Origin: Ignavibacteria bacterium
Lineage (GTDB): Bacteria; Elusimicrobiota; Endomicrobiia; PHAN01
Reading direction: 5' to 3'
DNA: 63,083 nt
Assembly (NCBI GenBank): GCA_041694835.1
Contig: JBGFRZ010000054.1
Location: 1 to 63,083, forward strand
The position numbers were made by a program, and so were the translations under genes. This document shows positions 7,374 to 61,517 of the stretch, one piece after another (within the stretch, counting starts at the first letter, position 1; each line of letters begins with the position of its first letter). The notes below the pieces were generated by a model. The model searched no databases and was not told where the DNA came from. It worked only from the letters and a program-made list of their open reading frames with translations.

Positions 7374-7571
7374 GGAACGCGGATAAACGCAGATTTGACA
7401 AGATTGACGCAGATGTTTTTGAAATCTATTGAATCCCGATGGTTATCGGGACAAGTTCCACGAAAATCTGCGTCCTAAAATTCATTGGGAACATTTCTAA
7501 TAGGACGCAGATGAACGCAGAAAAAACAGGATTTAAGAATTATCTGCGACAATCTGCGAAAATCTGCGTCC
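7374..7571. repeat. Two consecutive acgcaga-word hairpins
   Basis: ggaacgcggataaacgcagat...aaaatctgcgtcc, then ggacgcagatgaacgcagaaaa...atctgcgacaatctgcgaaaatctgcgtcc. Segment 7463-7548 is nearly identical to 19000-19084. Confidence 0.85.
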
Positions 7572-11477: not shown

Positions 11478-11742
11478 AATTAAAAATGCAAAATGCAAAA
11501 TGTAAAATTGTGGCAAAAAAACATTTTTAATAAAAAAAGAATTAAACCACAGATGAACACAGATGGACACAGATAGAAGATAAAATTACAAAAACAATCT
11601 GCGTGTATCTGCGTGAATCTGTGGTTCCAAAAATCTCAAATGCCTCCAACATTAAAATTAAATGGGAGCATGTCCATCTCTTTTTAGAGGACAGATATGA
11701 AATTGGGGAAGTTCCTTAATTTTGACTTTTGACTTTTTAATT
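11478..11742. repeat. Nested imperfect palindrome filling the whole intergenic gap
   Basis: Outer arms are aattaaaaatgcaaaatgcaaaat / aattttgacttttgactttttaatt. The inner hairpin is ccacagatgaacacagatggacacagat (11547-11574) / atctgcgtgtatctgcgtgaatctgtgg (11597-11624). Confidence 0.75.
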
Positions 11743-13444: not shown

Positions 13445-13523
13445 TAGAGCATAAAAGACAGAGCACAAGAGCACAAGTCATAAGAGCACAAGTTTTGACT
13501 TATGCACTTAAGCACTTGTGCAC
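13445..13523. repeat. gcacaag-word hairpin
   Basis: agagcacaagagcacaagtcataagagcacaagttttgacttatgcacttaagcacttgtgcac. It shares a ~40-nt core with 20940-20985. Confidence 0.8.
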
Positions 13524-13541
13524 TAATATTTAGAGGATGTA

Positions 13542-14501
13542 ATGAAACTTTTAATTACCGGCGGAGCGGGGTTTATCGGTTCTAACATCGTAGAAGAATT
13601 GTTGAGGCGAAAATACTTCGTCAGAGTGCTCGACAATTTTTCTACGGGCAAAAGAGAAAACCTTGATTTTTCTCCATCGCTCCATCGCTCCATCGCTTCA
13701 TCGCTTGAAGTTATCGAAGGCGATATAAGAGAAAAAAAAGACCTTCGAAAATCTCTGAAGAGAATTGATGTGGTCCTGCATCAGGCGGCGCTTCGTTCCG
13801 TGCCACGCTCGGTTGACGACCCATTAAGCACGAACGAGGTTAATATCACTGGAACCCTCAATCTTCTTTTGGAAGCAAAAAATGCGGGGGTCAAACGAGT
13901 TGTTTATGCTTCTTCTTCGTCGGTTTACGGAGACAGCAACATTCTTCCGCAGAAAGAAACGCAAAAAACCGCCCCGATTTCCCCGTACGCGGCGAGCAAA
14001 CTCGCAGGTGAGGATTACTGCAGGGTTTTTTCAAAGACATTTGGTCTTGAAACAATCTCTCTGAGATATTTCAATGTTTTTGGACCAAAACAAGACCCCG
14101 AATCAAAATACGCTGCTGTGATTCCGAAGTTTATTGAATCTGCTCTTAGAAATGAACCGCTTGAAGTTCACGGAGACGGAAAACAATCGAGGGATTTTTC
14201 ATACATAGACAATGTCGTAGACGCAAACATATTGGCCGCATTGGCACCTTCAAGTATTGCCAAAAAAGGAGAAATTTTCAACATCGCCTGCGGCGAAAGT
14301 CACTCGTTGCTTGAAATCATCAAACTTCTTGAAACATTGTCGCGCAAAAAACTAAAAAAAAATCATACGCATCCGCGCGCTGGTGATGTCAGAAAAACCT
14401 GGGCAGACATATCGAAAGTGAAAAAACTTCTCAAATATAAAGTTCTCGTAGATTTTGAGAAAGGAATATCACGGACATTTGAGTGGTTTAAAAATAGTTA
14501 G
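13542..14501 (+). CDS. NAD-dependent nucleotide-sugar 4-epimerase (WbpP/TviC-like)
   Basis: [16 protein letters not shown] and LDNFSTGKRENL. Contains the octamer repeat at 13673-13704. Confidence 0.8.
   Translation: MKLLITGGAGFIGSNIVEELLRRKYFVRVLDNFSTGKRENLDFSPSLHRSIASSLEVIEGDIREKKDLRKSLKRIDVVLHQAALRSVPRSVDDPLSTNEVNITGTLNLLLEAKNAGVKRVVYASSSSVYGDSNILPQKETQKTAPISPYAASKLAGEDYCRVFSKTFGLETISLRYFNVFGPKQDPESKYAAVIPKFIESALRNEPLEVHGDGKQSRDFSYIDNVVDANILAALAPSSIAKKGEIFNIACGESHSLLEIIKLLETLSRKKLKKNHTHPRAGDVRKTWADISKVKKLLKYKVLVDFEKGISRTFEWFKNS
13673..13704 (+). repeat. Tandem octanucleotide repeat inside a CDS (tccatcgc x3 + ttcatcgc)
   Basis: Read directly as tccatcgc tccatcgc tccatcgc ttcatcgc. It encodes PSLHRSIASS. 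Confidence 0.9.
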
Positions 14502-14578
14502 TGGATGGCGACTTGTTAGTGACTGGTGACTTGTGGCTAGTGGCTGGAGGAAATGAGCAACGAGCCACGAGCCACTTA
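14500..14578. repeat. Word hairpin (gtgac / gtggct words)
   Basis: gtggctagtggctgg (14534-14548) pairs with cgagccacgagccac (14561-14575). Confidence 0.7.
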
Positions 14579-18595: not shown

Positions 18596-19107
18596 GGACG
18601 CAGATAACGCAGATTGACAGGATTACAAACACAAAAAGATAATTCGGGCTGATTCGTGTTCATTTGTGGTTAAATTATAGTTTTGTAATTTCCATGATTT
18701 CCGTGGCAAAGTTTTTAATTTACTATGGATTCCCGATTACTGTATTCGGGAATGACACTTTGTGTCATCTGCGAAAATCTGCGTCCTAAAAAACTAATTG
18801 GACGCGGATAAACGCAGAAACAACTTTGATAAACGCAGATTAAAGCAACTATAAACTCATCTGCGAAAGTCTGTGTCCTAAAAAGCTAATTGAACGCAGA
18901 TGAACGCAGAAAAAACGGAATTAAGAATCAAGTTTTTTTTCTTAATTCTCACCACTTAATCCGAGTGGTTAAGAGGTTTTTTATCTGCATTCATCCTGTA
19001 AATCTGCGTCCTAAAATTCATTAGGAACATTTCTAATGGGACGCGGTTGAACGCAGAAAAAACAGGATTTAAGAATTGTCTGCGTCAATCTTGTTAAATC
19101 TGCGTCC
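18596..19107. repeat. Array of four consecutive acgcaga-word hairpin units
   Basis: Each unit starts (g/t)g(g/a)acgc(a/g)g... and ends ...tctg(c/t)gtcctaa. 18767-18840 matches the reverse complement of 59655-59727, and 19000-19084 matches 7463-7548. Confidence 0.9.
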
Positions 19108-19116
19108 TAACATAAT

Positions 19117-19449
19117 ATGAAGTATCAACATAAAAATTTGGCGTTGGGCAGGTGGAACACTTTAACGCTTTCAGAACAAATGGCTAACATCGGCTCGGAA
19201 GTAATCCGTGCTTTGAAGTGGCTTAAAAAAGGCGACAGAGAATACTCTCAACTTGCTTCTGATAGGGCGTTGGAGTTGTTTGATTTGACACTGTCCGATG
19301 GGAAAAACCGGAAAAGATTGAAAGAAATCGCTCGGATGAGAGAAATCGTCGTTGAATTTTTTTACGGAAAAAATCAATACGACTACACCGCTGAGAGTTT
19401 AGAAAATTACTTTTTTGCATTCAATTATTACATCGCAGTAAATAGGTAA
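19117..19449 (+). CDS. Hypothetical small helical protein
   Basis: A clean 110-aa ORF bracketed by hairpin units. I cannot assign a family with confidence. Confidence 0.5.
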   Translation: MKYQHKNLALGRWNTLTLSEQMANIGSEVIRALKWLKKGDREYSQLASDRALELFDLTLSDGKNRKRLKEIARMREIVVEFFYGKNQYDYTAESLENYFFAFNYYIAVNR

Positions 19450-19938
19450 AGGCAGAGATAAAGATAGAGGTAAAGATGGATGGGTGTGTAAAATCAACTT
19501 ACAAAACTTTTAAAGAAATGACTGTTTGGCGGGATGCTATGAATGTTGCCGAGCATATTCACAAACTTACAGAAAATCTACCAAAAAAAGAAGATTATGG
19601 ATTTACATCGCAAATCCGTCGAGCCGCTTTGAGCATATCAGCCAATATAGCGGAAGCGTATGGCAGAAATCATATTTCCGACAAAATCAATTTTTATTAC
19701 TTTGCAAGGGGTTCTATAACGGAAACACAAAGCCATGTTGAGTATGGCAAAAGAGTTGGCTATATTGAAAAACAAGTTGCAGAATCAATTGACAAAACAC
19801 TGAGTGCTCTCTACAACAACATCAACAAAATCGTGGTAACGCTTAAGAAAACAGGTAAAGAAAATAGGTAGAGGTAGAGAAAAAACAAGTATAAGGTAGA
19901 AGTAGAGCTTATCTTTATCTTTACCTTTACCTTTATCT
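19445..19938 (+). mobile_element. IVS-like cassette: four-helix-bundle gene flanked by complementary ggtaaag / ctttacc word arms
   Basis: Left arm ggtaaaggcagagataaagatagaggtaaag (19445-19475). Right arm cttatctttatctttacctttacctttatct (about 19908-19938), plus a local ggtagaggtagag...ggtagaagtagag block. Confidence 0.6.
19476..19871 (+). CDS. Four-helix-bundle protein (23S rRNA intervening-sequence protein / Avd family)
   Basis: FKEMTVWRDAMNVAEHIHKLTENLPKKEDYGFTSQIRRAALSISANIAEAYGR...FYYFARGSITETQSH is the family signature as I remember it (PF05635-like). Confidence 0.85.
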   Translation: MDGCVKSTYKTFKEMTVWRDAMNVAEHIHKLTENLPKKEDYGFTSQIRRAALSISANIAEAYGRNHISDKINFYYFARGSITETQSHVEYGKRVGYIEKQVAESIDKTLSALYNNINKIVVTLKKTGKENR

Positions 19939-19945
19939 AATATCT

Positions 19946-20968
19946 ATGTCTTCAAAAATTTTAATCACCGGCGGGGCGGGATTTATCGGCTCTCACTTGT
20001 GCGATTATTTTATAGCAAAAAAACATGAAGTCATCGCGGTGGATAATTTGATAACGGGCGACATAAGAAACATCGAACATTTGTTCGGGCATCCAAAATT
20101 TCGGTTTGTAAAATACAATGTGACAAACTATCTCCATGCTCCGGGAAAAATAGACGCTGTCCTTCATTTCGCATCTCCCGCCAGCCCCGTGGATTATTTG
20201 AAATATCCAATACCCACACTTAAAGTCGGAGCGCTTGGCACTCACACCACTTTGGGATTGGCGAAAGAAAAAAAAGCAATTTTTATGCTTGCCTCAACCA
20301 GCGAGGTCTACGGCGACCCGATGATTTCGCCTCAAAAAGAGGGATATTGGGGCAATGTAAATCCGATTGGAGTTCGCGGTTGTTACGACGAAGCAAAAAG
20401 ATTCGCGGAAGCAATGACGATGGCATATCACAGATACCACGGGCTTGACACAAGGATAGTTAGAATTTTTAACACATACGGACCGAGGATGCGTCTAAAC
20501 GACGGCCGGGTCGTTCCGAATTTTATATATCAAGCGCTAAATAAAAAACCGCTCACCGTCTACGGCGACGGCACCCAAACGAGAAGTTTTTGCTATGTTT
20601 CTGACCTTGTCGAAGGCATATATAAACTTTTATTGTCAAAAGTAAATGAACCAGTCAACCTCGGCAATCCGACGGAACTCTCAATAAATGAATTCGCAAA
20701 GGTAATTGCCAAATTGACAAATTGCAAATCAAAAATTATAAACAAGCCGTTGCCACAAGATGACCCCAAACGGCGATGTCCCGACATAACAAAAGCGAAA
20801 AAATTGCTCAAATGGTCGCCTAAAATAAATCTTGAAGATGGACTCAAAAAAACCATAGAGTATTTCAATACAACAGGTATAATAAGAGCACAAGGCACAA
20901 GTCAGAGGTCAGAGGTCAGAGGTCAGAAATTAGAGCACAAGTGCACAAGGGCACAAGTTTTGACTTAA
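19946..20968 (+). CDS. uxs: UDP-glucuronate decarboxylase (UDP-xylose synthase)
   Basis: [27 protein letters not shown] and IFNTYGP. The last ~30 codons (from about 20880) are read out of the gcacaag / gtcagag repeat. Confidence 0.88.
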
Positions 20969-20998
20969 GCACTTAAGCACTTATGCTCTTATGCACTA
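20882..20998. repeat. gcacaag-word hairpin containing gtcagag x3.5 tandem heptamer
   Basis: ataagagcacaaggcacaag, gtcagag x3 (20901-20921), then agagcacaagtgcacaagggcacaagttttgacttaagcacttaagcacttatgctcttat. Confidence 0.8.
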
Positions 20999-21015
20999 AT
21001 GTCAGGAGGAATTTT

Positions 21016-21705
21016 ATGGAAAACACACCGATGTATTACGAAGACGAGATTTCGTTGGACGAGTTAATCGCGCCGCTCAAAAAAAGATGGAAGACGATTC
21101 TATTGTTCAGCACTATTGTGGCGGTCATTGCGGCCGTTTACTCGCTTTTTCTGCCGAGGATTTATGAAGCAAAAAGTTACATCAAAATCGGCACAGATGG
21201 AGGCAGGGCTTTTGAAAGTATTGGCCAAATAAAGACGATAATGTCTTCACATCCATCTCTTGTGGCGATAGCGAAAGAACTCAACATCAAGCCAACAAGA
21301 AAAAACATCCGGGATTTAAAAAGAAAAATAAAGTACGCAGGTAAAGCGGAATTGCTTGAAATAACGGTTGAAGGTTTATCGCCGGAAAGTGCCATTAAAA
21401 CCGCTGAAATTATATCTAATATGATTTTGAAAAGACATGAAAAATTTTACGGATCGGCGCAAAAAAATATTTTAAATGCATTAGAAATTATAAAAGATTA
21501 TGTTAGACCGATCCCCATATCCACAGGAACATCCGAATTTAAAATAATTCCGACTGAGATTGAAATTAAACCACACAGCGACGGCATCCCCGTAAAAGGC
21601 AATCGCATCCAAATAGTAATTATCTCCTTTATAATAGGGGCAGTGCTCTCAACGCTCTATTCATACTGGCTCGAGAGAAAAAAAGGGTACAAACAAAATG
21701 TCTAA
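21016..21705 (+). CDS. wzz: Short Wzz-like chain-length determinant
   Basis: N-terminal Wzz motif EDEISLDELIAPLKKRWKTILLFSTIVAVIAAVYSLFLPRIYEA and a C-terminal TM segment. RBS aggagga precedes ATG 21016. Confidence 0.7.
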   Translation: MENTPMYYEDEISLDELIAPLKKRWKTILLFSTIVAVIAAVYSLFLPRIYEAKSYIKIGTDGGRAFESIGQIKTIMSSHPSLVAIAKELNIKPTRKNIRDLKRKIKYAGKAELLEITVEGLSPESAIKTAEIISNMILKRHEKFYGSAQKNILNALEIIKDYVRPIPISTGTSEFKIIPTEIEIKPHSDGIPVKGNRIQIVIISFIIGAVLSTLYSYWLERKKGYKQNV

Positions 21706-22074
21706 TCAAGAATATGGAGAAGACGAAATAAATCTGCGCAACTATATCATGGTGATGCTAAAGAGGAAGAAACTTATACTGGCGGTATTCTTTGGAACAC
21801 TAATCACTGCTGCCATTGCCAGCTTGTTGATGCCTGGGGTATATCAAGCGACTGCATCCATAATGATTCTGCCTTCGCGGATGCGGACTGCTCTCTCTCC
21901 TAGAGAGATTTCCCTGGATATATCAGGATTGTCTCTCTCGCTTTTGTGCCGCAAGAACCTATAAGTCCAAACATTGGAAAAAATATTGCTATTGCCGGCT
22001 TGCTTGGTTTAATGTTTGGCACTTTTTCAGCATTCCTTGTAGAATATATGAGAACGTTGAAAAACCCTCTTTAG
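21698..22074 (+). pseudogene. Second Wzz-like gene, internally deleted and frameshifted
   Basis: The N-terminal piece EDEINLRNYIMVMLKRKKLILAVFFGTL...GVYQATASI stops at 21964. The C-terminal TM piece PISPNIGKNIAIAGLLGLMFGTFSAFLVEYMRTLKNPL is in another frame and ends at 22074. The periplasmic domain is missing. Confidence 0.7.
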
Positions 22075-22146
22075 TTCTTTGAAATAATTCTCGTCGGTAA
22101 ATCCGACGATAAAACATTTGCATTTTCTCTCCGGAATTGCTATAAT
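22048..22146 (+). repeat. 99-nt repeat, copy 1 (98/99 identical to 62871-62969)
   Basis: atgaga(a/g)cgttgaaaaaccctctttagttctttgaaataattctcgtcggtaaatccgacgataaaacatttgcattttctctccggaattgctataat. Confidence 0.9.
22118..22146 (+). promoter_or_regulatory. Near-consensus sigma70-type promoter TTGCAT-N17-TATAAT inside the 99-nt repeat
   Basis: ttgcat at 22118-22123, a 17-nt spacer, and tataat at 22141-22146. It is followed by aggagg and ATG 22184. Confidence 0.5.
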
Positions 22147-22183
22147 ATTTCTGACGAAAACAAATAGAATTCAGGAGGACAAA

Positions 22184-22430
22184 ATGTATAAAGAACAATC
22201 AAAACAAACAAGTTTCTTCGGGAACATGATTTATGAACAAGTCGTTCCCCCAACCATTTTTCAAGGTTGTTGTAATGAACTCTGTAGAGACCTATACTGT
22301 TTTGCAGAAGGTTGCAAATATATTTTATAATCGTTCCGACGAACAGCATCAAAAAAAAAGTGTTTATAGCCGTTTTTCAGTTCGAATGACTCCGTGGGGC
22401 AGTAATCGGGGAGAAACAATCCTCCACTAA
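22184..22430 (+). pseudogene. Transposase N-terminal remnant (DUF772 / IS5-IS1182-like), frameshifted
   Basis: MYKEQSKQTSFFGNMIYEQVVP, then (P)NHFSRLL in a shifted frame, which resembles the IP.DH.LR motif. There is no catalytic domain downstream. Confidence 0.4.
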
Positions 22431-22631
22431 AGAGGTTGTCCGACAACCCGCTTTTTTGTCATTCTGAGCCCCGCACCTTTTTATGTCATTGTGAGCCTTA
22501 GCGAAACAATCTCGTTTCTAAAAAGGTGTGGGGTAAACTCCGTGAAGAATCTCGTTTCCGACGATAGCATTTCAGAGATTCTTCGGGCTTCGCCCTCAGA
22601 ATGACATTGTCGGACAGCCACTAAAGTGGAG
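22422..22631. repeat. Long hairpin with nested inner hairpin
   Basis: ctccactaaagaggttgtccgacaa / ttgtcggacagccactaaagtggag, and gtcattctgag / ctcagaatgac. The inner hairpin is gaagaatctc...gagattcttc. Confidence 0.8.
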
Positions 22632-22740
22632 ACTCCAAATTGAGGACAATTATTCTCATGCCAAAGGCAGATCCGCCTCTGGCGGAAAATTCCTATACAG
22701 GAACATTTATGAAAAAGTTCTGACAAATATGAGGTGAGAA

Positions 22741-23520
22741 ATGAAAATAGTCATACTTTGTGGCGGGTTAGGCGCACGACTTCGTGAAGAAACGGAGTTT
22801 CGTCCCAAACCAATGGTGGAAGTTGGTGGCAAACCGATTCTCTGGCATATTATGAAGATTTATGCTCATTATGGATTCAAAGATTTCATCCTCTGCCTCG
22901 GGTATAAAGGGGAGATGATTAAAGAGTATTTTTACAATTATGAAATTCTAAATAATGATTTTACAGTGGAACTTGGAAACCATAAGAGTATAGAAATCCA
23001 CAGTGGCCATGGTGAAAAAGGCTGGCGTATTACATTAGCCGATACCGGAGATAAAGCACTGAAAGGTGCTAGATTAAAAAGGATAGAAAAATACATTGAT
23101 GGCGGACAATTTATGGTTACTTATGGGGATGGTGTAGCGGATATTGATATAAATGATTTATTAAAATTTCACCAATCACACGGTAAATTGGCTACCCTGA
23201 CCGGTGTCCGTCCGCTTTCCCGTTTTGGAGAGTTTACCGTAAAAGGTAAGCAAGTTATACAATTTACCGAAAAACCTCAGAGTGCCGGTGGCCTTATAAA
23301 TGGAGGGTTTTTCGTCTTTAACCGTAAAATTTTCGATTACCTTGAGAATAAAGACGACTGTGATTTAGAGTATGGAGCTTTAGAAGAGGTTGCTTTGGAA
23401 GGTCAATTAATGGTTTATGAACATGATAGATTCTGGTATTGCATGGATACTATTCGGGATATGGATTATTTAAACAAGCTATGGACCCGAGGAAAGGCGC
23501 CATGGAGGGGATGGAAGTAG
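22741..23520 (+). CDS. rfbF: Glucose-1-phosphate cytidylyltransferase
   Basis: MKIVILCGGLGARLREETEFRPKPMVEVGGKPILWHIMKIY is the RfbF/DdhA signature. Confidence 0.9.
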   Translation: MKIVILCGGLGARLREETEFRPKPMVEVGGKPILWHIMKIYAHYGFKDFILCLGYKGEMIKEYFYNYEILNNDFTVELGNHKSIEIHSGHGEKGWRITLADTGDKALKGARLKRIEKYIDGGQFMVTYGDGVADIDINDLLKFHQSHGKLATLTGVRPLSRFGEFTVKGKQVIQFTEKPQSAGGLINGGFFVFNRKIFDYLENKDDCDLEYGALEEVALEGQLMVYEHDRFWYCMDTIRDMDYLNKLWTRGKAPWRGWK

Positions 23521-23522
23521 AA

Positions 23523-23967
23523 GATTAGAGGGTTGGAAGGTTGGAGGGTTAGTAATTGGCAAAGAATCTCTATAAAGATCTTGTTATATGGCAAAAAAGC
23601 ATTGAACTGATCAAGAACGTTTATAAAATAGCTGAATCTCTCCCCAAGTCTGAAGAATTCAACTTAAAACAACAATTAAAACGGTCTGTCGTTTCTGTAG
23701 CGTTAAACATTGCAGAAGGCAAGAATAGACGGACATCAAAAGATTTTGCAAATTTTCTAACTATGTCGGCGGCATCACTTGCCGAAGTTGAAGCTATTAT
23801 ATCAATCTGCAAAGAATTAAATTATCTGCAGGATGTTGACAGTATTTATAAAGACATAGAAAACCTGGGAAAGATGATCAATTCATTCAAGAGCAATCTA
23901 CTTGCAAGGAGTATGTAAATGACAATCCAATCTTCCAACCCTCTAACCCTCCAACCCTCAAACCCTC
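23523..23967 (+). mobile_element. IVS-like cassette: four-helix-bundle gene flanked by complementary ggttgga / ccaaccctc word arms
   Basis: Left arm gattagagggttggaaggttggagggttag (23523-23552). Right arm atccaatcttccaaccctctaaccctccaaccctcaaaccctc (23925-23967). Confidence 0.65.
23556..23918 (+). CDS. Four-helix-bundle protein (23S rRNA intervening-sequence protein / Avd family)
   Basis: YKDLVIWQKSIELIKNVYKIAESLPKSEEFNLKQQLKRSVVSVALNIAEGKNRRTSKDFANFL. TTG start as given in the track. Confidence 0.85.
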   Translation: MAKNLYKDLVIWQKSIELIKNVYKIAESLPKSEEFNLKQQLKRSVVSVALNIAEGKNRRTSKDFANFLTMSAASLAEVEAIISICKELNYLQDVDSIYKDIENLGKMINSFKSNLLARSM

Positions 23968-24167
23968 TTTTTTCAAGGGTAAACGGGTTTTTATCACAGG
24001 CCATACAGGATTTAAAGGTTCATGGCGAAGGCTTCCGCGATTTTATTATCAGGGAAGACCTTCCTGGTTTTATCAATCTTGCAGGAATAGAGTCCCCTGG
24101 TCTTACTGCAGCGCCTGCTATTGCCAAGTATGTCAAGAAAATGCTTAACGGAAGGAGCAATTTATGA
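23966..24167 (+). pseudogene. Chimeric remnant: ~20 codons of CDP-glucose 4,6-dehydratase N-terminus joined to the C-terminal tail of an FAD-dependent oxidoreductase
   Basis: One frame reads [19 protein letters not shown] (23969-24026). The other reads [40 protein letters not shown] (24027-24167). The track ORF 23919..24167 merges repeat arm plus fragments. Confidence 0.7.
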
Positions 24168-25255
24168 AGATATTAATTACGGGTAATATGGGTTATATTG
24201 GACCCTCTGTAGTTCGGAGGCTGAAGGCATCTTATCCTGACTCAACACTCATTGGTTTTGATATGGGTTATTTTGCAAATTGTTTGACAAATGAAGAGAT
24301 ACTTCCTGAGTGCAACGTTGATCTGCAATACTTTGCAGATATCAGAAAATGCCAGAGAGAATTGCTGACAGGGGTAGATGCGATTGTCCACCTCGCTGCC
24401 ATATCAAATGATCCCATGGGGAACACCTTTGAAGATGTAACGCATGATATTAATTACCGTTCAAGTATTGAGCTGGCAAAAAAAGCGAAAGAGGCAGGGG
24501 TAAAGAGGTTTGTTTATGCCTCCAGTTGCAGTATGTATGGTTTTGCTGATGATGCCCCGAGAACCGAGGCATCTCCACTTAATCCTCTTACTGCCTACGC
24601 TAAATCCAAAGTCTTTACTGAGAGAGACCTGCAAAAGATAGCAGATAAGGAATTTGTTGTGACAAGCCTGAGGTTTGCAACAGCCTGCGGAATGAGCGAA
24701 CGCTTAAGACTGGATTTGGTGTTAAATGATTTTGTGGCATGTGCAGTTTCTTCAAAAAAGATTACCATCCTAAGCGACGGAACACCGTGGAGGCCGTTAA
24801 TAAATATAAAAGATATGGCGAGGGCGGTTGATTGGGCAATAAGGAGGCAATCGGCTGACGGGGGAGAATATGTGGCTGTCAATACAGGCAGCAATGACTG
24901 GAACTGTCAGGTAAAAGATTTGGCAGAGGCTGTAGCAAGTGTTATCCCTGGCGTTGACATCTCAATAAATAAAAATGCCCAACCAGATAAACGATCCTAT
25001 AAAGTAAGTTTTGACCTTTACAGGCAATTGGCTCCTGATTATCAACCCAAGGTTGACTTAATAACAAGCATCGTGGAATTAAAGGATGGTCTTGAGGCAA
25101 TGAATTTTAATAATCCGGATTTTAGAAACTCAAAGTTTATAAGGTTAAAAGTTTTAACAAACCTAAAAGGCAAAGGCCTGCTGAATGAAAACCTTGAGTG
25201 GGATATAGCGGGGTATAAAGAAAATAAGGACTTAAGACAGATTTGCCTTGATTAA
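24164..25255 (+). CDS. NAD-dependent epimerase/dehydratase family protein (extended SDR), specificity unknown
   Basis: [12 protein letters not shown] and YAKSK. 363 aa. Confidence 0.7.
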
Positions 25256-25294
25256 ATCAAAGAGTGTTCCGAGTATTGAGTGGAGGTGTAAAGG

Positions 25295-26704
25295 ATGGGA
25301 AACAAAGAACTGGAAAATGAACTTCGCCGAAAGGTAATTGATTCGGCAATCAGATATTATGAATTCAAGTATAAAAATAAAAAGTCTTTCAAACCAGGCG
25401 ACCGCATACCTTATGCAAGTCGTGTATTTGATGAAAAGGAGATTTCTAATCTTATAGAATCAGCTCTTGATTTCTGGCTTACCACCGGCAGATATGCTGA
25501 AAGTTTTGAGAAGGAGTTTGCAGAGTTTCTCGGCGTTAAACATTGCTCTCTTACAAATTCCGGCTCATCTGCTAATCTTCTTGCTTTTATGGCATTGACA
25601 TCGCCAAAACTTGGAGAAAGAAGAATAAAAAAGGGTGACGAAGTAATCACTGTGGCAGCAGGTTTTCCAACCACTGTGACCCCGATTATACAGTACGGTG
25701 CAGTTCCGGTCTTTGTGGACATTACACTTCCATCATACAACATTGACTGCAATCAATTAGAAGCAGCTCTATCGGAAAAAACAAAAGCCATAATGGTTGC
25801 CCATACTCTTGGGAATCCTTTTGACCTGAATGCTGTAAAAGGTTTTTGTGACAAGCACAACCTCTGGCTGATTGAAGACAACTGCGATGCCCTCGGAAGC
25901 AAATATAGAAGATTGGAAGATTTGATGATTGGGAGTTCAACTACTCCTCCAACCCTCCAATCCTCCAACCCTCCAACCTTCCAATACACAGGCACTTTCG
26001 GACACATAGGCACCTCCAGCTTCTACCCTCCTCACCATATAACTATGGGAGAAGGAGGCGCGGTTTACACAAACGATAATCTGCTCAAGAGATTGATTGA
26101 ATCTTTCCGTGACTGGGGCAGGGATTGCTGGTGCGCTTCCGGGAAGGATAATACCTGTGGAAAACGTTTTGATTGGCAACTCGGGGAACTACCCTATGGT
26201 TATGACCATAAATATATCTATTCTCATTTTGGGTATAATCTAAAAGTCACCGACATGCAGGCAGCCATCGGCTGCGCCCAATTAGAAAAACTGCCGGGCT
26301 TTATTGAGGCAAGGAAAAGAAACTGGAAGATGTTAAGAGAGGGATTAGATGATTTATCCAATGTTTTTATCTTGCCAGAGCCTACGCCAAATTCTGAGCC
26401 AAGCTGGTTTGGGTTTATCCTCACTGTTAAAGAAAATACAGGTTTCTTGAGGGATGATATTGTGAAGTATTTAGAAGAAAATGGAATACAGACACGAATG
26501 CTTTTTGCAGGCAATCTTATAAAACACCCCTGTTTTGATGAGATAAGAACGACGGGAGAAGGGTATAGGGTTGTGGGAAGCCTTGAGAATACCGACAGGA
26601 TTATGAGAGATACCTTCTGGGTTGGAGTCTATCCTGGGATGACTAAAGAAATGATTCTCTATATGATAGAGAAGATTCGTGATTTTTGTGAGGGTAAATC
26701 ATAA
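25295..26704 (+). CDS. rfbH: CDP-4-keto-6-deoxyglucose 3-dehydratase (E1, RfbH/DdhC-like) carrying an in-frame repeat insertion
   Basis: DegT-fold with His at the PLP-lysine position ([14 protein letters not shown]) and a Cys cluster [16 protein letters not shown]. Confidence 0.8.
25907..25984 (+). repeat. 78-nt in-frame palindromic word-repeat insertion inside rfbH-like CDS
   Basis: agaagattggaagatttgatgattgggag ... ctcctccaaccctccaatcctccaaccctccaaccttccaa. It encodes [26 protein letters not shown]. attggaag pairs with cttccaat. Confidence 0.75.
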
Positions 26705-27259
26705 ATGCAATTTGATATAAAACAAACAAAAATACCACATTGTTTTGAACTTTTACCAAGGTTTTTCAGAGATGAACGTGGTTCTTTTGTAAAGACTTTC
26801 CATGTAGATGTTTTTAAACAATATGGGATAGAGACACATTTTGCAGAGGAATATTATTCATTTTCACATAAAAGGGTCTTGAGGGGATTGCATTTTCAAC
26901 TGCCGCCGATGGACCATGTGAAGTTAGTTTATTGTGTGTATGGAAGATTGTTGGATGTAGTAGTCGACTTAAGGGTTGGTTCTCCAACTTATGGTGAGTT
27001 TGAAACCTTTGAACTGAGTGCTGAACAATCTAACATGGTTTATATTCCAAAAGGCTTGGCACATGGCTTTTATGTGATGAGTGAAGGTGCGGTTATGATG
27101 TATAAGGTTACAACAGTTTATTCTCCAGAACATGATACCGGGATTTTGTGGAATTCCATAGGTATCCCATGGCCTGATGAAAAACCTATTATTTCTAAAA
27201 GGGATAGTGAATTTTTGGGCTTTAAAGATTTCAAAAGCCCTTTTATTTATCGAAAATGA
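26705..27259 (+). CDS. RmlC-family sugar 3,5- (or 5-) epimerase (AscE-like)
   Basis: FRDERGSFVKTF, LRGLHFQ and GLAHGF cupin motifs. Confidence 0.8.
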   Translation: MQFDIKQTKIPHCFELLPRFFRDERGSFVKTFHVDVFKQYGIETHFAEEYYSFSHKRVLRGLHFQLPPMDHVKLVYCVYGRLLDVVVDLRVGSPTYGEFETFELSAEQSNMVYIPKGLAHGFYVMSEGAVMMYKVTTVYSPEHDTGILWNSIGIPWPDEKPIISKRDSEFLGFKDFKSPFIYRK

Positions 27260-28185
27260 AAAGTGAGAGAGTCGCTTTAGTTACAGGTGCTACTGGATTT
27301 GTTGGTTCACATCTTGCTAAACGGTTAGTTAATGATGGATGGAATGTGCATATAGTTGTCCGTCCACAATCTAATCTTGACATTATTTCGGACATAATAG
27401 AAAAATTGACCATCCACAGGCATGATGGGACGACCGAGGGAATACTTGGTATTCTGAATGAGGCGAAACCGAAAATTGTCTTTCATTTAGCCTCTCTTTT
27501 CCTTGCTGAGCACCAAACGAAGGACATTGAGTCATTAATAAAAAGTAATATCTTATTTGGCACTCAACTTATAGAGGCAATGGTAAGGAACGAGATATAT
27601 AAATTGATTAATACCGGCACATCGTGGCAGCATTATAATAATGAAGATTACAATCCTGTAAATTTATATGCCGCGACAAAACAGGCATTTGAAGCTATTT
27701 TGAAGTTTTATATAGAGACAACGCCATTGAGAGCGATTACCTTAAAACTCTTTGATACCTATGGTCCAAATGACCCGAGACCAAAACTCTTTACTTTACT
27801 GAGAAGAGTTGCATCAGAGAACAATTCACTTGCGATGTCGCCAGGAAACCAACTTGTAGATCTTGTGTATATTGATGATGTAGTTGAAGCGTTTATACAT
27901 GCAGCAGTAAGATTGCTCGAAAATAAAGTCCAAAACCATGAGCGATATGCGGTGTCATCTGGTAAACCTATAAAACTTATAGATATCGTGAAAGTATATG
28001 AAAAAATCATCGGGCGAGAATTACCAATTCAATGGGGCGGTAAACCATATAGGAATCGTGAAGTAATGAAACCGTGGCTAAATTATAAGGTCTTACCTGT
28101 CTGGAAGCCAAATATCAGTTTAGAAGAAGGTATAAAGAAATGTACAATAGTAACACATCAAACGCAAAATAGATTTGAAGATTAA
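27256..28185 (+). CDS. SDR sugar 4-reductase (CDP-abequose/paratose/ascarylose synthase-like)
   Basis: VTGATGFVGSHL and YAATK. Lies in the context after the E1 and epimerase genes. Confidence 0.65.
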   Translation: MKSERVALVTGATGFVGSHLAKRLVNDGWNVHIVVRPQSNLDIISDIIEKLTIHRHDGTTEGILGILNEAKPKIVFHLASLFLAEHQTKDIESLIKSNILFGTQLIEAMVRNEIYKLINTGTSWQHYNNEDYNPVNLYAATKQAFEAILKFYIETTPLRAITLKLFDTYGPNDPRPKLFTLLRRVASENNSLAMSPGNQLVDLVYIDDVVEAFIHAAVRLLENKVQNHERYAVSSGKPIKLIDIVKVYEKIIGRELPIQWGGKPYRNREVMKPWLNYKVLPVWKPNISLEEGIKKCTIVTHQTQNRFED

Positions 28186-47344: not shown

Positions 47345-47376
47345 CGAAACAACTCTCTTACTCGCAATCAACAGTT

Positions 47377-47443
47377 CCTAAATAATAATCATTCCTATTT
47401 AGTAATCATTACTATTTAGGAATCATTATTATTTAGTAATAGG
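47377..47443. repeat. ~17-nt AT-rich tandem repeat (tatttag(t/g)aatcatta(c/t) x about 2.8)
   Basis: Read directly between smpB and tRNA-Ser. Confidence 0.6.
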
Positions 47444-47458
47444 TTGTTGCGCGGGAAA

Positions 47459-48632: not shown

Positions 48633-48644
48633 TTTCACCTCGTT

Positions 48645-48920
48645 TTATTGAACTTCGCATAATTAGTTGATATTCTGGCTTAACAATTTTGGAGCGAAAC
48701 GAGGAACGAGGAGCGAGGCATACCCTCGGCGGTATGTAAGCGACGAGTGACAAAGTTGTAGCCCAAAAGTGTTAAGCCCCTTCGGGGAGGCAGAACTTTG
48801 GCTGATTTCTGTGTCGTTCGTTGTTTATGTAGCACTGCGGCTACACCGCACTCCTCACTCCTTGAAATCACCTCAAATCTATGCCTCCAAAATGTCAAAT
48901 AATTATGCGAAGTTCAATAA
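48645..48920 (+). repeat. ~278-bp structured palindromic element, copy 2
   Basis: Termini ttattgaacttcgcataattagttgatattctg / caaaatgtcaaataattatgcgaagttcaataa. The core aligns with copies 1 and 3 and includes ccccttcgggg. Confidence 0.85.
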
Positions 48921-48936
48921 TTATGTTCAAGCCATA

Positions 48937-59410: not shown

Positions 59411-59640
59411 TATGAGATTATTGAAAAAGTTCTTCTACCACACAAGACGCAAAAAATGTGTAAGAAATTTTTTGCAACAAAGCACAAGTTTTGTAGTTGC
59501 AGACCTTGGTCTGCACAAGTGCACAAGGCATAAGAGCACAAGTGCACAAGTCACTGTAAATCCCCCTGCTTCGCTTCCCCCTTTACAAAAGGGGGATAGA
59601 GGGGATTTTCCGTGATTTCCAACTTTCGCGCTTTCGTGGT
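59411..59640. repeat. Composite palindromic repeat block, copy B (inverted partner of 797-1004)
   Basis: See 797-1004. It has an extra 23 nt, cacaaggcataagagcacaagtg, relative to copy A. Confidence 0.85.
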
Positions 59641-59653
59641 TCAAATCTTTTTT

Positions 59654-61193: not shown

Positions 61194-61231
61194 ATGATAT
61201 CCGCCAGCCAACTACGCAAGAATGCCTGAAC

Positions 61232-61510
61232 TAGTGCTCTGTGCCATAAATAATTGACATTTTGCACGAACGATTTTGGAGCGAAACAAAGAACGAGGAG
61301 TGAAGCATACCCTCTGTGGTATGTGAGCGACGAGTGATGAAGAAGTTGTAGCCCAAAAGCGCCGTGCCCTTCGGGGTTCGTCATCTTTGGGGCATTTCTG
61401 CGTCACTCCTCGTTTATGTAGCACTGCGGCTACACCGCACTCGTCGTTCCTTGAACTGCCCTCAAATCTGACGAACCAAAATGCTCAACTATTTATGGCA
61501 CAGAGCACTA
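61232..61510 (+). repeat. ~278-bp structured palindromic element, copy 3
   Basis: Termini tagtgctctgtgccataaataattgacattttg / caaaatgctcaactatttatggcacagagcacta. The core contains gcccttcgggg. Confidence 0.85.
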
Positions 61511-61517
61511 AACGGTA

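Follow-up and report, generated by a model that had tools for sequence, protein, structure and literature searches.

How does a tandem-repeat hairpin come to lie in frame inside a conserved enzyme gene, and what keeps it there? The question is raised by a 63,083-nt stretch of DNA (contig JBGFRZ010000054.1; called the window here), in which the gene rfbH carries 26 extra codons made of octamer repeats. The gene encodes CDP-6-deoxy-L-threo-D-glycero-4-hexulose-3-dehydrase, an enzyme of the E1 type. About 2 kb upstream, a cassette with an Avd-like open reading frame (ORF) of the PF05635 family is bordered by arms of the same octamers. We think it probable, at roughly 0.62, that the insert is a solo, ORF-less copy of the hairpin formed by the cassette arms and that it is tolerated as a disordered loop of RfbH.

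The insert in rfbH and its host protein

The sequence at 25907-25984 reads AGAAGATTGGAAGATTTGATGATTGGGAG-TTCAACTA-CTCCTCCAACCCTCCAATCCTCCAACCCTCCAACCTTCCAA. It is in frame within the ORF 25295..26704 and is built from three copies of GAAGATTG, a 13-nt spacer and five copies of CCTCCAAC (Table 1). The first-pass annotation had described a 78-nt word repeat of 26 codons that keeps the reading frame, and the sequence is exactly as it claimed. It had also described the two halves as complementary. Repeat detection confirmed this, as the two arrays are mutually inverted over 25 nt with 80% complementarity; the right arm shows direct-repeat families D1 and D2 and inverted repeats I1-I3. The word CTCCAACCCTCCAA (two mismatches or fewer) occurs nine times in the window against 0.24 expected (0/100 shuffles), which places the insert far above chance. 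Three places account for all nine matches: the rfbH insert and, in the Avd-like cassette, the left arm (23525-23546, minus strand) and the right arm (23933-23962, plus strand). The word that the annotation had noticed in both places is therefore common to them and is found nowhere else in the 63 kb.

The octamers have properties that suit them to life inside a gene. Neither GAAGATTG nor CCTCCAAC yields a stop codon in any of the six frames. The unit of 8 nt is not a multiple of three, so an array gives the same repeating peptide in every frame (RLEDWKIG or PSNPPTLQ), the octamers being read in rotating frames and three units making 24 nt or eight codons. Arrays are thus open in any phase, and the sole requirement is a total length divisible by three. 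In the window, the left arm is read as RLEDLMIG. The left arm is purine-rich and supplies E, D, and K codons, and the right arm is C-rich and supplies P, T, S, N, and Q codons; this composition makes the loop hydrophilic and the mRNA stem weak.

The gene that hosts the insert is intact: its product reaches 762 bits with the RfbH model NF011936 (cut-off 423), and the match covers residues 5-467. The match to the Yersinia E1 entry 3bcx (E = 6e-164) falls into two stretches that break exactly at the insert, and residues 205-230 of the query face only three residues (201-203) of 3bcx. The SFYPPHH stretch of the window protein aligns with SFYPAHH of 3bcx, where 3bb8 has AKH, and the first histidine of its His-His motif aligns with the residue that differs between these two E1 entries. 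The C-x-C...C motif is retained as well, with RDCYCAPGCDNTC as its counterpart in 3bcx. We take the SFYPPHH motif to contain the E1 His220, which stands in place of the Schiff-base lysine, and the cysteine motif to belong to the Fe-S cluster. The ratio of nonsynonymous to synonymous substitution rates (dN/dS) of rfbH against its relatives is 0.05-0.17, indicating purifying selection in all insert-bearing loci; synonymous sites (dS) are saturated among most rfbH lineages. The profile match, the E1 motifs, and dN/dS agree that the gene is neither decaying nor non-functional.

We modeled RfbH with AlphaFold2 using a 50-sequence alignment. The predicted local distance difference test (pLDDT) score is below 50 over residues 198-230, and the insert lies between strands 191-196 and 232-235. 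The model agrees, short of proof, with the insert being a disordered loop. The segment would be translated as a 26-residue disordered loop on the surface, and we infer that it has no catalytic role.

To place the insert among its relatives, we used the 120 best RfbH matches, to which the counts given here refer, and retrieved the DNA of 13 loci with an insert; it comes from JGI, NCBI, ENA, and Logan assemblies. The same position holds a seven-residue turn in 100 of the 120 homologues (KY-LYKGEWR-YTGTIG or variants), and more distant homologues have a three-residue turn (DGK or GKx). The remaining 20 have 15-50 residues in this loop, for example RLEDWKIG...PSNPPTLQ. The first-pass annotation had put the linker of RfbH/DdhC homologues at only a few residues, and this was correct: three residues in the E1 entry 3bcx and seven in most of our set. 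As 20 of the 120 homologues carry inserts, the insert is not private to the source genome and represents a haplotype of rfbH alleles present in many metagenomes. The proposal that a coding sequence was invaded and the invader tolerated as a loop holds for the in-frame, low-pLDDT loop, but the event is neither private nor recent. It was not a simple insertion either. The segment is extra relative to the homologues, but the native turn has been replaced rather than merely extended. Judged as a miniature transposable element with inverted repeats (MITE), the segment has inverted arms, but its flanks read only TAT|A and TAC|A, and the turn itself is deleted. Orthologues with a segment of comparable length exist, but in most of them the same repeats are also present in rfbG or in a neighboring Avd-like cassette, an outcome that strengthens the solo-hairpin idea. 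The insert peptides belong to at least three unrelated sequence families, 15-50 residues in length.

Three further searches bear on the distribution. None of at least 80 metagenome loci listed from a whole-protein scan had an insert. The protein collection searched with the 50-aa repeat peptide of homologue P0038 gave zero other host proteins, and a search with a 92-aa segment spanning an idealised insert returned short insert-less fragments only. We also considered a full Avd cassette residing inside the rfbH of some relative; the long match in locus L160 proved to be a second paralogue only.

A different fusion was seen at the other end of the protein. At least 11 of the 120 homologues (P0002, P0003, P0012, P0014, P0030, P0031, P0056, P0060, P0073, P0076, and P0110) carry a PemK/MazF-like toxin domain of ~95 residues, joined in frame to the RfbH N-terminus in place of the first helix. 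One such toxin-RfbH fusion is present at 6824-9042 of L161, with antitoxin-like small ORFs just upstream.

The repeat family tracks the Avd type, not host-gene phylogeny

The Avd-like cassette spans 23520-23968 between rfbF and a remnant of rfbG, and the matches of its ORF are limited to PF05635, bAvd, and TIGR02436. The arms are complementary over 39 nt at 79% and over 26 nt at 92%. When joined, they fold with -47.9 kcal/mol on the sense strand (z -6.5) and -56.1 kcal/mol on the antisense strand (z -8.1). The same cassette occupies the same rfbF/rfbG junction in L162, L167, L001, L169, L171, and L172 (partial). L161 has a 5'-truncated remnant, and the cassette is absent from the junction in L163, L164, and L166. 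Where a locus reaches far enough upstream to tell, 7/10 loci with an insert have an Avd-like ORF upstream (three lack it), versus 1/117 insert-less loci (116 lack it); in phylogenetic terms these counts are not independent. L171 has a 23-nt string, GGAGATTGGATGATTGGAAGGTT, that the cassette's left arm and the left arm of the rfbH insert share without a difference. By longest common substring, the inserts of L171 and L001 are closest to the arms of their own cassettes.

The Avd-like proteins form three types, to which the second cassette of the window adds a further single locus with period-6 AGATAA arms. Identity between types is 27-42%, and each of the three types has one repeat family in both its arms and the rfbH insert. 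Type I (window, L162, and L171; 70-79% identity within the type) goes with CCAACCCT/GAAGATTG, type II (L167 and L169; 51%) with TCAACNNN, and type III, a single locus (L001), with CAACTTCN/GAAGTTGN. The host genes are related differently. RfbF, RfbG, and RfbH of L162, L167, and L171 are equidistant (77-83%); the Avd-like proteins of L162 and L171 are 79% identical to each other and only 41% and 37% identical to that of L167. L001 and L163 are close in RfbF (89%) and RfbH (91%; dS 0.35), and their inserts share 0-3% of 7-mers. Within L001, the five repeat sites have 24-48% of 7-mers in common. These comparisons of Avd-like proteins, host genes, and 7-mers establish that relatedness of the host genes fails to predict the repeat family. 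The family found in rfbH, and at in-frame sites in the rfbG of relatives, follows the Avd type and not the phylogeny of the host genes.

These rfbG sites are informative in their own right. In L163, L164, and L001, the gene (encoding CDP-glucose 4,6-dehydratase) contains arrays of the locus's own family, in frame, at three sites, G1, G2, and G3, which lie after NPNHFDL, after YRRSFF, and before HEAG (L163 8945-9781, L164 8984-9469, and L001 2906-3778). At the YRRSFF site, L163 and L001 have a full hairpin and L164 the right arm only. The rfbG and rfbH copies of L163 are near-identical, including the loop, and differ by a compensatory change from G-C to A-T in the apical stem. Relatives have three to five repeat sites in rfbG and rfbH together. 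In L007, a second in-frame half-copy (HASLPLNRFAS) is found near the C-terminus of rfbH at ~2686-2721; this half-copy is the first insert's left arm in reverse complement and lies 700 nt downstream of that insert. Taken with these additional in-frame sites, the rfbH insert is one case of a recurrent colonisation of permissive loops in sugar-operon genes.

The strength of the hairpins varies. The window insert folds with -19.5 kcal/mol as sense RNA (z -2.4), -40.0 kcal/mol as antisense RNA (z -6.4), and -7.8 kcal/mol as sense DNA (z -0.9, not significant). All mismatches on the sense strand are A.C and become G.U on the antisense strand. Stronger antisense folding was found in 8/10 homologous inserts; in the window's intergenic hairpins this bias is far weaker or lacking. 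The inserts of L165 (150 nt; -53 kcal/mol sense and -83 kcal/mol antisense) and L001 (99 nt; -49 kcal/mol) are long near-perfect hairpins, those of the window and L161 are moderate, and those of L166, L167, L169, and L171 are decayed or one-armed arrays with z of about +1 to -2. Since hairpins have decayed in genes under purifying selection, the hairpin is dispensable for rfbH. Strong hairpins nevertheless persist in lineages long separated. We take the weakening on the sense strand as amelioration. A mutational bias through deamination was judged an unlikely cause of the strand asymmetry, by reasoning only: C-to-T changes on the coding strand would give sense G.U pairs, the opposite of what is observed. 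A scan for promoters and terminators found none at the hairpin. The Rfam search over 19000-28000 showed no family at the hairpin and no rRNA; its sub-threshold, minus-strand matches of a miRNA-precursor-like kind reflect a generic long hairpin. Viral contigs searched with the octamer word gave a single unrelated GC-rich match.

Table 1. Positions of the insert, the cassettes, and the genes around them in the window.
Feature	Position	Strand	Basis
rfbH (E1-type dehydrase), 469 aa	25295..26704	+	NF011936, 3bcx
In-frame repeat hairpin, 78 nt, 26 codons, between Tyr204 and Tyr231 of RfbH	25907..25984	+	
Left arm of insert, (GAAGATTG)x3.1, 82%	25908..25932	+	Tandem Repeats Finder; inverted-repeat arm I1
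Spacer/apical loop of insert (GAGTTCAACTACT)	25933..25945	+	RNA folds, sense and antisense
Right arm of insert, (CCTCCAAC)x4.9	25946..25984	+	Tandem Repeats Finder, score 64, 90% matches
rfbF (glucose-1-phosphate cytidylyltransferase), upstream of cassette	22741..23520	+	TIGR02623, 350 bits vs cut-off 300
Cassette left arm, (GAAGGTTG)x3.9, starting at rfbF stop codon	23520..23550	+	Tandem Repeats Finder, word matches
Avd-like four-helix-bundle ORF, 120 aa	23556..23918	+	PF05635 (23S_rRNA_IVP) E = 6.6e-34; TIGR02436 E = 7.9e-33
Cassette right arm, (AACCCTCN)x4-5, bearing the ATG that starts rfbG in relatives	23926..23975	+	Repeat calls
Second PF05635 cassette, period-6 AGATAA arms, single locus	19444-19938		

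Several neighboring features deserve mention. In the window, rfbG is gutted (23919-25255), and ~19 N-terminal codons are left. Downstream of the remnant come part of an FAD oxidoreductase, from its C-terminus, and, after that, a different gene of the short-chain dehydrogenase/reductase (SDR) family (24164..25255), whose last 20 residues match the C-terminus of the L161 rfbG product. The right arm of the cassette has two units fewer in the window than in L161, and as a result the arm's ATG and the rfbG remnant are in different frames. With rfbG gutted, the canonical second step of the pathway is missing from the locus. The second PF05635 cassette is 28% identical to the first and is inserted directly upstream of another SDR gene. 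Its flanks are inverted period-6 arrays (AGATAA/AGGTAA and TTATCT/TTACCT), of which the window has no solo copy. At 13672-13705, a near-perfect (CTCCATCG)x4 array lies in frame in the ORF of an NAD-dependent SDR sugar epimerase (13542..14501; peptide ..DFSPSLHRSIASSLEVIEGDIR..). It occupies the loop before GDIR, equivalent to the first rfbG site of L163, L164, and L001. The array has no complementary arm and no second copy in the window and is a candidate slipped-strand switch.

The window contains other repeats. Intergenic hairpins of the polysaccharide cluster (20901-20997, 13460-13524, 14497-14575, 11545-11626, and 7387-7569) are inverted tandem arrays of 7-10 nt units from other families (GCACAAGT/ACTTAAGC, GTGACTG/GAGCCAC, and CACAGATGAA/ATCTGCGTG). 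The arrays at 20901-20958 are translated as the C-terminal tail of the ORF 19946..20968. A palindromic element of ~280 nt occurs in three copies, one of them inverted, at 2540-2820, 48643-48922, and 61230-61512. The copies are 72-78% identical and fold with -116 to -141 kcal/mol (z about -11); the element is MITE-like and unrelated to the octamer hairpins. An inverted repeat of ~240 nt (787-1004 and 59411-59652; 85% identical) surrounds ~58 kb of polysaccharide-biosynthesis genes and contains a G/C-rich hairpin together with GCACAAGT arrays. Finally, a near-perfect palindrome at 47363-47451 lies between ORFs and has 44-nt arms of 17-nt repeats (TAATCATTACTATTTAG), with z about -10 on both strands.

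Origin of the insert and competing explanations

In a neighbor-joining tree, the insert-bearing RfbH sequences fall into at least three clusters, with insert-less sequences nested between them. In the homologue P0079 (L169), the insert is bordered on both sides by the native LN..NE of the seven-residue turn; because the turn is kept, this was a separate event a few codons away. L007, an Elusimicrobiota metagenome-assembled genome (MAG), has an unrelated 126-nt palindrome in rfbH, and its nearest relative has the three-residue turn. The flanks of the inserts form a haplotype. The phenylalanine of TGTFG is found in 17/20 insert-bearing versus 6/100 insert-less sequences, arginine in first position in 16/20 versus 7/100, and glutamine in the penultimate position in 18/20 versus 12/100; the R and Q codons lie within the arrays. 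Between the window and L161, identity is 75-85% in rfbH and rises to 98-100% in 25860-26040. This tract indicates that the insert moves between alleles by homologous recombination with ~50 nt of flank. In our reading, there were a few independent gains, at least three events, in one permissive beta-turn, together with spread through recombination.

The shared octamer family, the insertion in a turn, and the intact host gene support the earlier description of the insert as an ORF-less solo-hairpin relative of the cassette arms. Such a copy would be taken, at its origin and in later renewal, from the arms of the cassette or from another copy. Candidate routes for this are gene conversion, switching of templates at hairpins, and hairpin-targeted insertion. 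The survivors would be those copies that landed in tolerant loops with a length divisible by three, and selection would filter only the reading frame, a hydrophilic composition, and a weak mRNA hairpin on the sense strand.

A number of observations weigh against this reading or reduce its reach. Most carriers have the same flanks, and a single old event with spread by recombination could explain much; the internal branches of the neighbor-joining tree are short. No clear target-site duplication was found at the insert, only TAY on each side. By longest common substring, the window insert resembles the arms of its own cassette no more than arms found in other genomes, so for the window we claim the relation between insert and arms at the level of the family only. 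The octamer family has just three sites in the 63 kb, and three types and about seven loci underlie the co-variation with Avd type. Translation of the 26-residue segment is a prediction. The AlphaFold model is moderate (mean pLDDT 76), and the adjacent active-site strand is also low. The strong antisense folding in 8/10 loci could reflect a function.

A function is the core of one alternative, which we regard as doubtful: the hairpins would be cis elements, and the Avd-like protein, or RNase III as in the 23S rRNA intervening sequences (IVSs), would act on the octamer arrays, both those around the Avd-like gene and those within the DNA or transcripts of rfbG and rfbH. Recognition would control how the operon RNA is processed or copied and how stable it is, and the match between arrays and protein would be maintained. 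That the repeat family follows the Avd type and not the host genes fits this, as do the IVS-like anatomy of a PF05635 ORF between complementary termini (PMC4990558), the persistence or renewal of hairpins despite saturated synonymous sites between lineages, and the strong antisense or double-stranded potential. However, L163 and L164 retain arrays in the absence of an Avd-like gene at the locus, the hairpin has decayed in several lineages while rfbH stayed under purifying selection, the stem on the mRNA side is weak in the window, and neither a promoter- or terminator-like site for an antisense RNA nor an Rfam family match was seen at the hairpin. A related proposal, unlikely in our view, is that PF05635 cassettes and tandem-repeat hairpins form a cognate, self-maintaining system of the REPIN-RAYT kind. 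The small protein would recognise the octamer arrays that belong to it and bring about the copying or homogenisation of these arrays or the processing of their RNA. Once a different cassette type had taken the rfbF/rfbG junction, the in-frame solo copies within rfbG and rfbH would be rewritten so as to agree with it.

Phase variation appears improbable. Slipped-strand gain or loss of an 8-nt unit would shift the frame of rfbH or rfbG and toggle the synthesis of a dideoxyhexose for the surface polysaccharide. The unit is not a multiple of three and the arrays sit inside surface-polysaccharide genes, the cassette right arms of the window and L161 are exactly two units apart with the rfbG remnant out of frame, and another epimerase gene of the window has the near-perfect in-frame (CTCCATCG)x4. 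The rfbH arrays themselves are short and imperfect (3.1 copies at 82% and 4.9 copies at 90%), and L161, a near relative, has an insert just as long as that of the window. Insert lengths among the homologues show no 8-nt steps, a search biased towards intact proteins found no frameshifted allele, and a switch has no need of an inverted pair of arrays. Even less probable is a loop with a lineage-specific protein function, such as a Pro/Ser/Asn-rich interaction linker, with the palindrome incidental. Indeed, 20 homologues keep the loop in frame, with the gene under purifying selection, and both arms have a bias to hydrophilic residues. Yet neither the sequence nor the length of the peptide is conserved, the peptide is a mere translation of the octamer in rotating frames, the same DNA units flank the neighboring gene outside any ORF, and the complementarity of the halves on the antisense strand is far above chance. 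Chance similarity or an assembly artefact we regard as negligible. Repeats can confuse assemblers, and nothing else speaks for it; comparable inserts at the same codon are present in independent JGI, NCBI, ENA, and Logan assemblies, and the word count of nine against 0.24 is hard to reconcile with chance. We retain the solo copy of a cassette-arm hairpin as the probable explanation of the insert.

Comparison with known systems

Our literature search found no title or abstract that describes PF05635 cassettes with tandem-repeat arms or in-frame solo copies of them, most subscription journals being outside its coverage. In-frame selfish palindromes are textbook knowledge only for Rickettsia, and here the same outcome is met in uncultured lineages. 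Rickettsia palindromic elements (RPEs) lie in frame in unrelated metabolic genes, are translated, are compatible with the fold, and occur several times per genome (PMC10969869). Both the RPEs and the insert are palindromic repeats that reside in frame in a protein gene and do not disrupt it, so the analogy drawn by the first-pass annotation is a fair one. The insert is not a member of an RPE family, as judged by size, build, and lineage. By description, RPEs measure ~100-150 bp, fall into ten defined families, and are found in Rickettsia only, whereas the insert is 78 nt of tandem octamers, open in all six frames. The nearest identified RfbH relatives of its host lineages are Nitrospirota and Elusimicrobiota MAGs, those nearest to the window being of the Nitrospirota type. 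The insert is not known to be related to RPEs in sequence, and, unlike them, it is tied to a neighboring PF05635 cassette with the same arms. The sites also form a natural map of where RfbH (E1) and CDP-glucose 4,6-dehydratase tolerate insertions in their loops.

Two kinds of short tandem arrays are also comparable. Like the simple sequence repeats (SSRs) of contingency loci, the arrays have a unit not divisible by three, lie in genes of the lipopolysaccharide or capsule kind, and, in the right arm of the cassette, differ in unit number between close relatives. Unlike those loci, they consist of two inverted, imperfect arrays that form a hairpin, and no frame-shifted alleles were observed. The short tandemly repeated repetitive (STRR) heptamers of cyanobacteria are dispersed arrays of 7-8 nt units, mostly intergenic and often hairpin-forming. 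The window resembles STRR-bearing genomes in the abundance of such short arrays, but its units differ and its lineage is not cyanobacterial. We know of nothing that ties STRRs to Avd-like cassettes or places them in frame within genes.

The tie to PF05635 leads to a family of unknown function that is best known from 23S rRNA IVSs. In these, an extended stem-loop replaces a small terminal loop at a few permissive sites, and the elements are sporadic and suspected to be mobile (PMC4990558). The IVS of the S23p type and the cassette share a PF05635 ORF with complementary, stem-forming termini. The IVS is located in helix 9, 25, or 45 of the 23S rRNA, whereas the cassette lies between rfbF and the rfbG remnant in an mRNA operon. 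The insert differs further in that its arms are tandem octamer arrays and that the solo copy sits in a coding sequence and is predicted to be translated rather than excised. ORF-less 23S IVSs, known from Salmonella, are the formal counterpart of the solo hairpin.

A parallel in organisation is offered by REPIN-RAYT systems, in which a single-copy gene is flanked by a hairpin repeat that is also scattered without the ORF; they are long-lived and lineage-specific (PMC3116915, PMC3337134). As in those systems, each type of Avd-like gene has its own repeat family, here in a small sample of three types and 7 loci. The proteins are different, as RAYT is a Y1 transposase and the Avd-like protein is a four-helix bundle of ~120 aa with no known transposase or nuclease activity. 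The repeats differ too: REPINs are extragenic REP sequences, whereas octamer copies reside inside ORFs, with a handful seen at the level of the locus. The tracking of Avd type makes testable both the role of Avd-like proteins outside diversity-generating retroelements (DGRs) and the spread of IVS-type stem-loops. If a cognate system of this kind is real, it would give a first function to the very large non-DGR branch of Avd and a mechanism for the origin of 23S IVSs.

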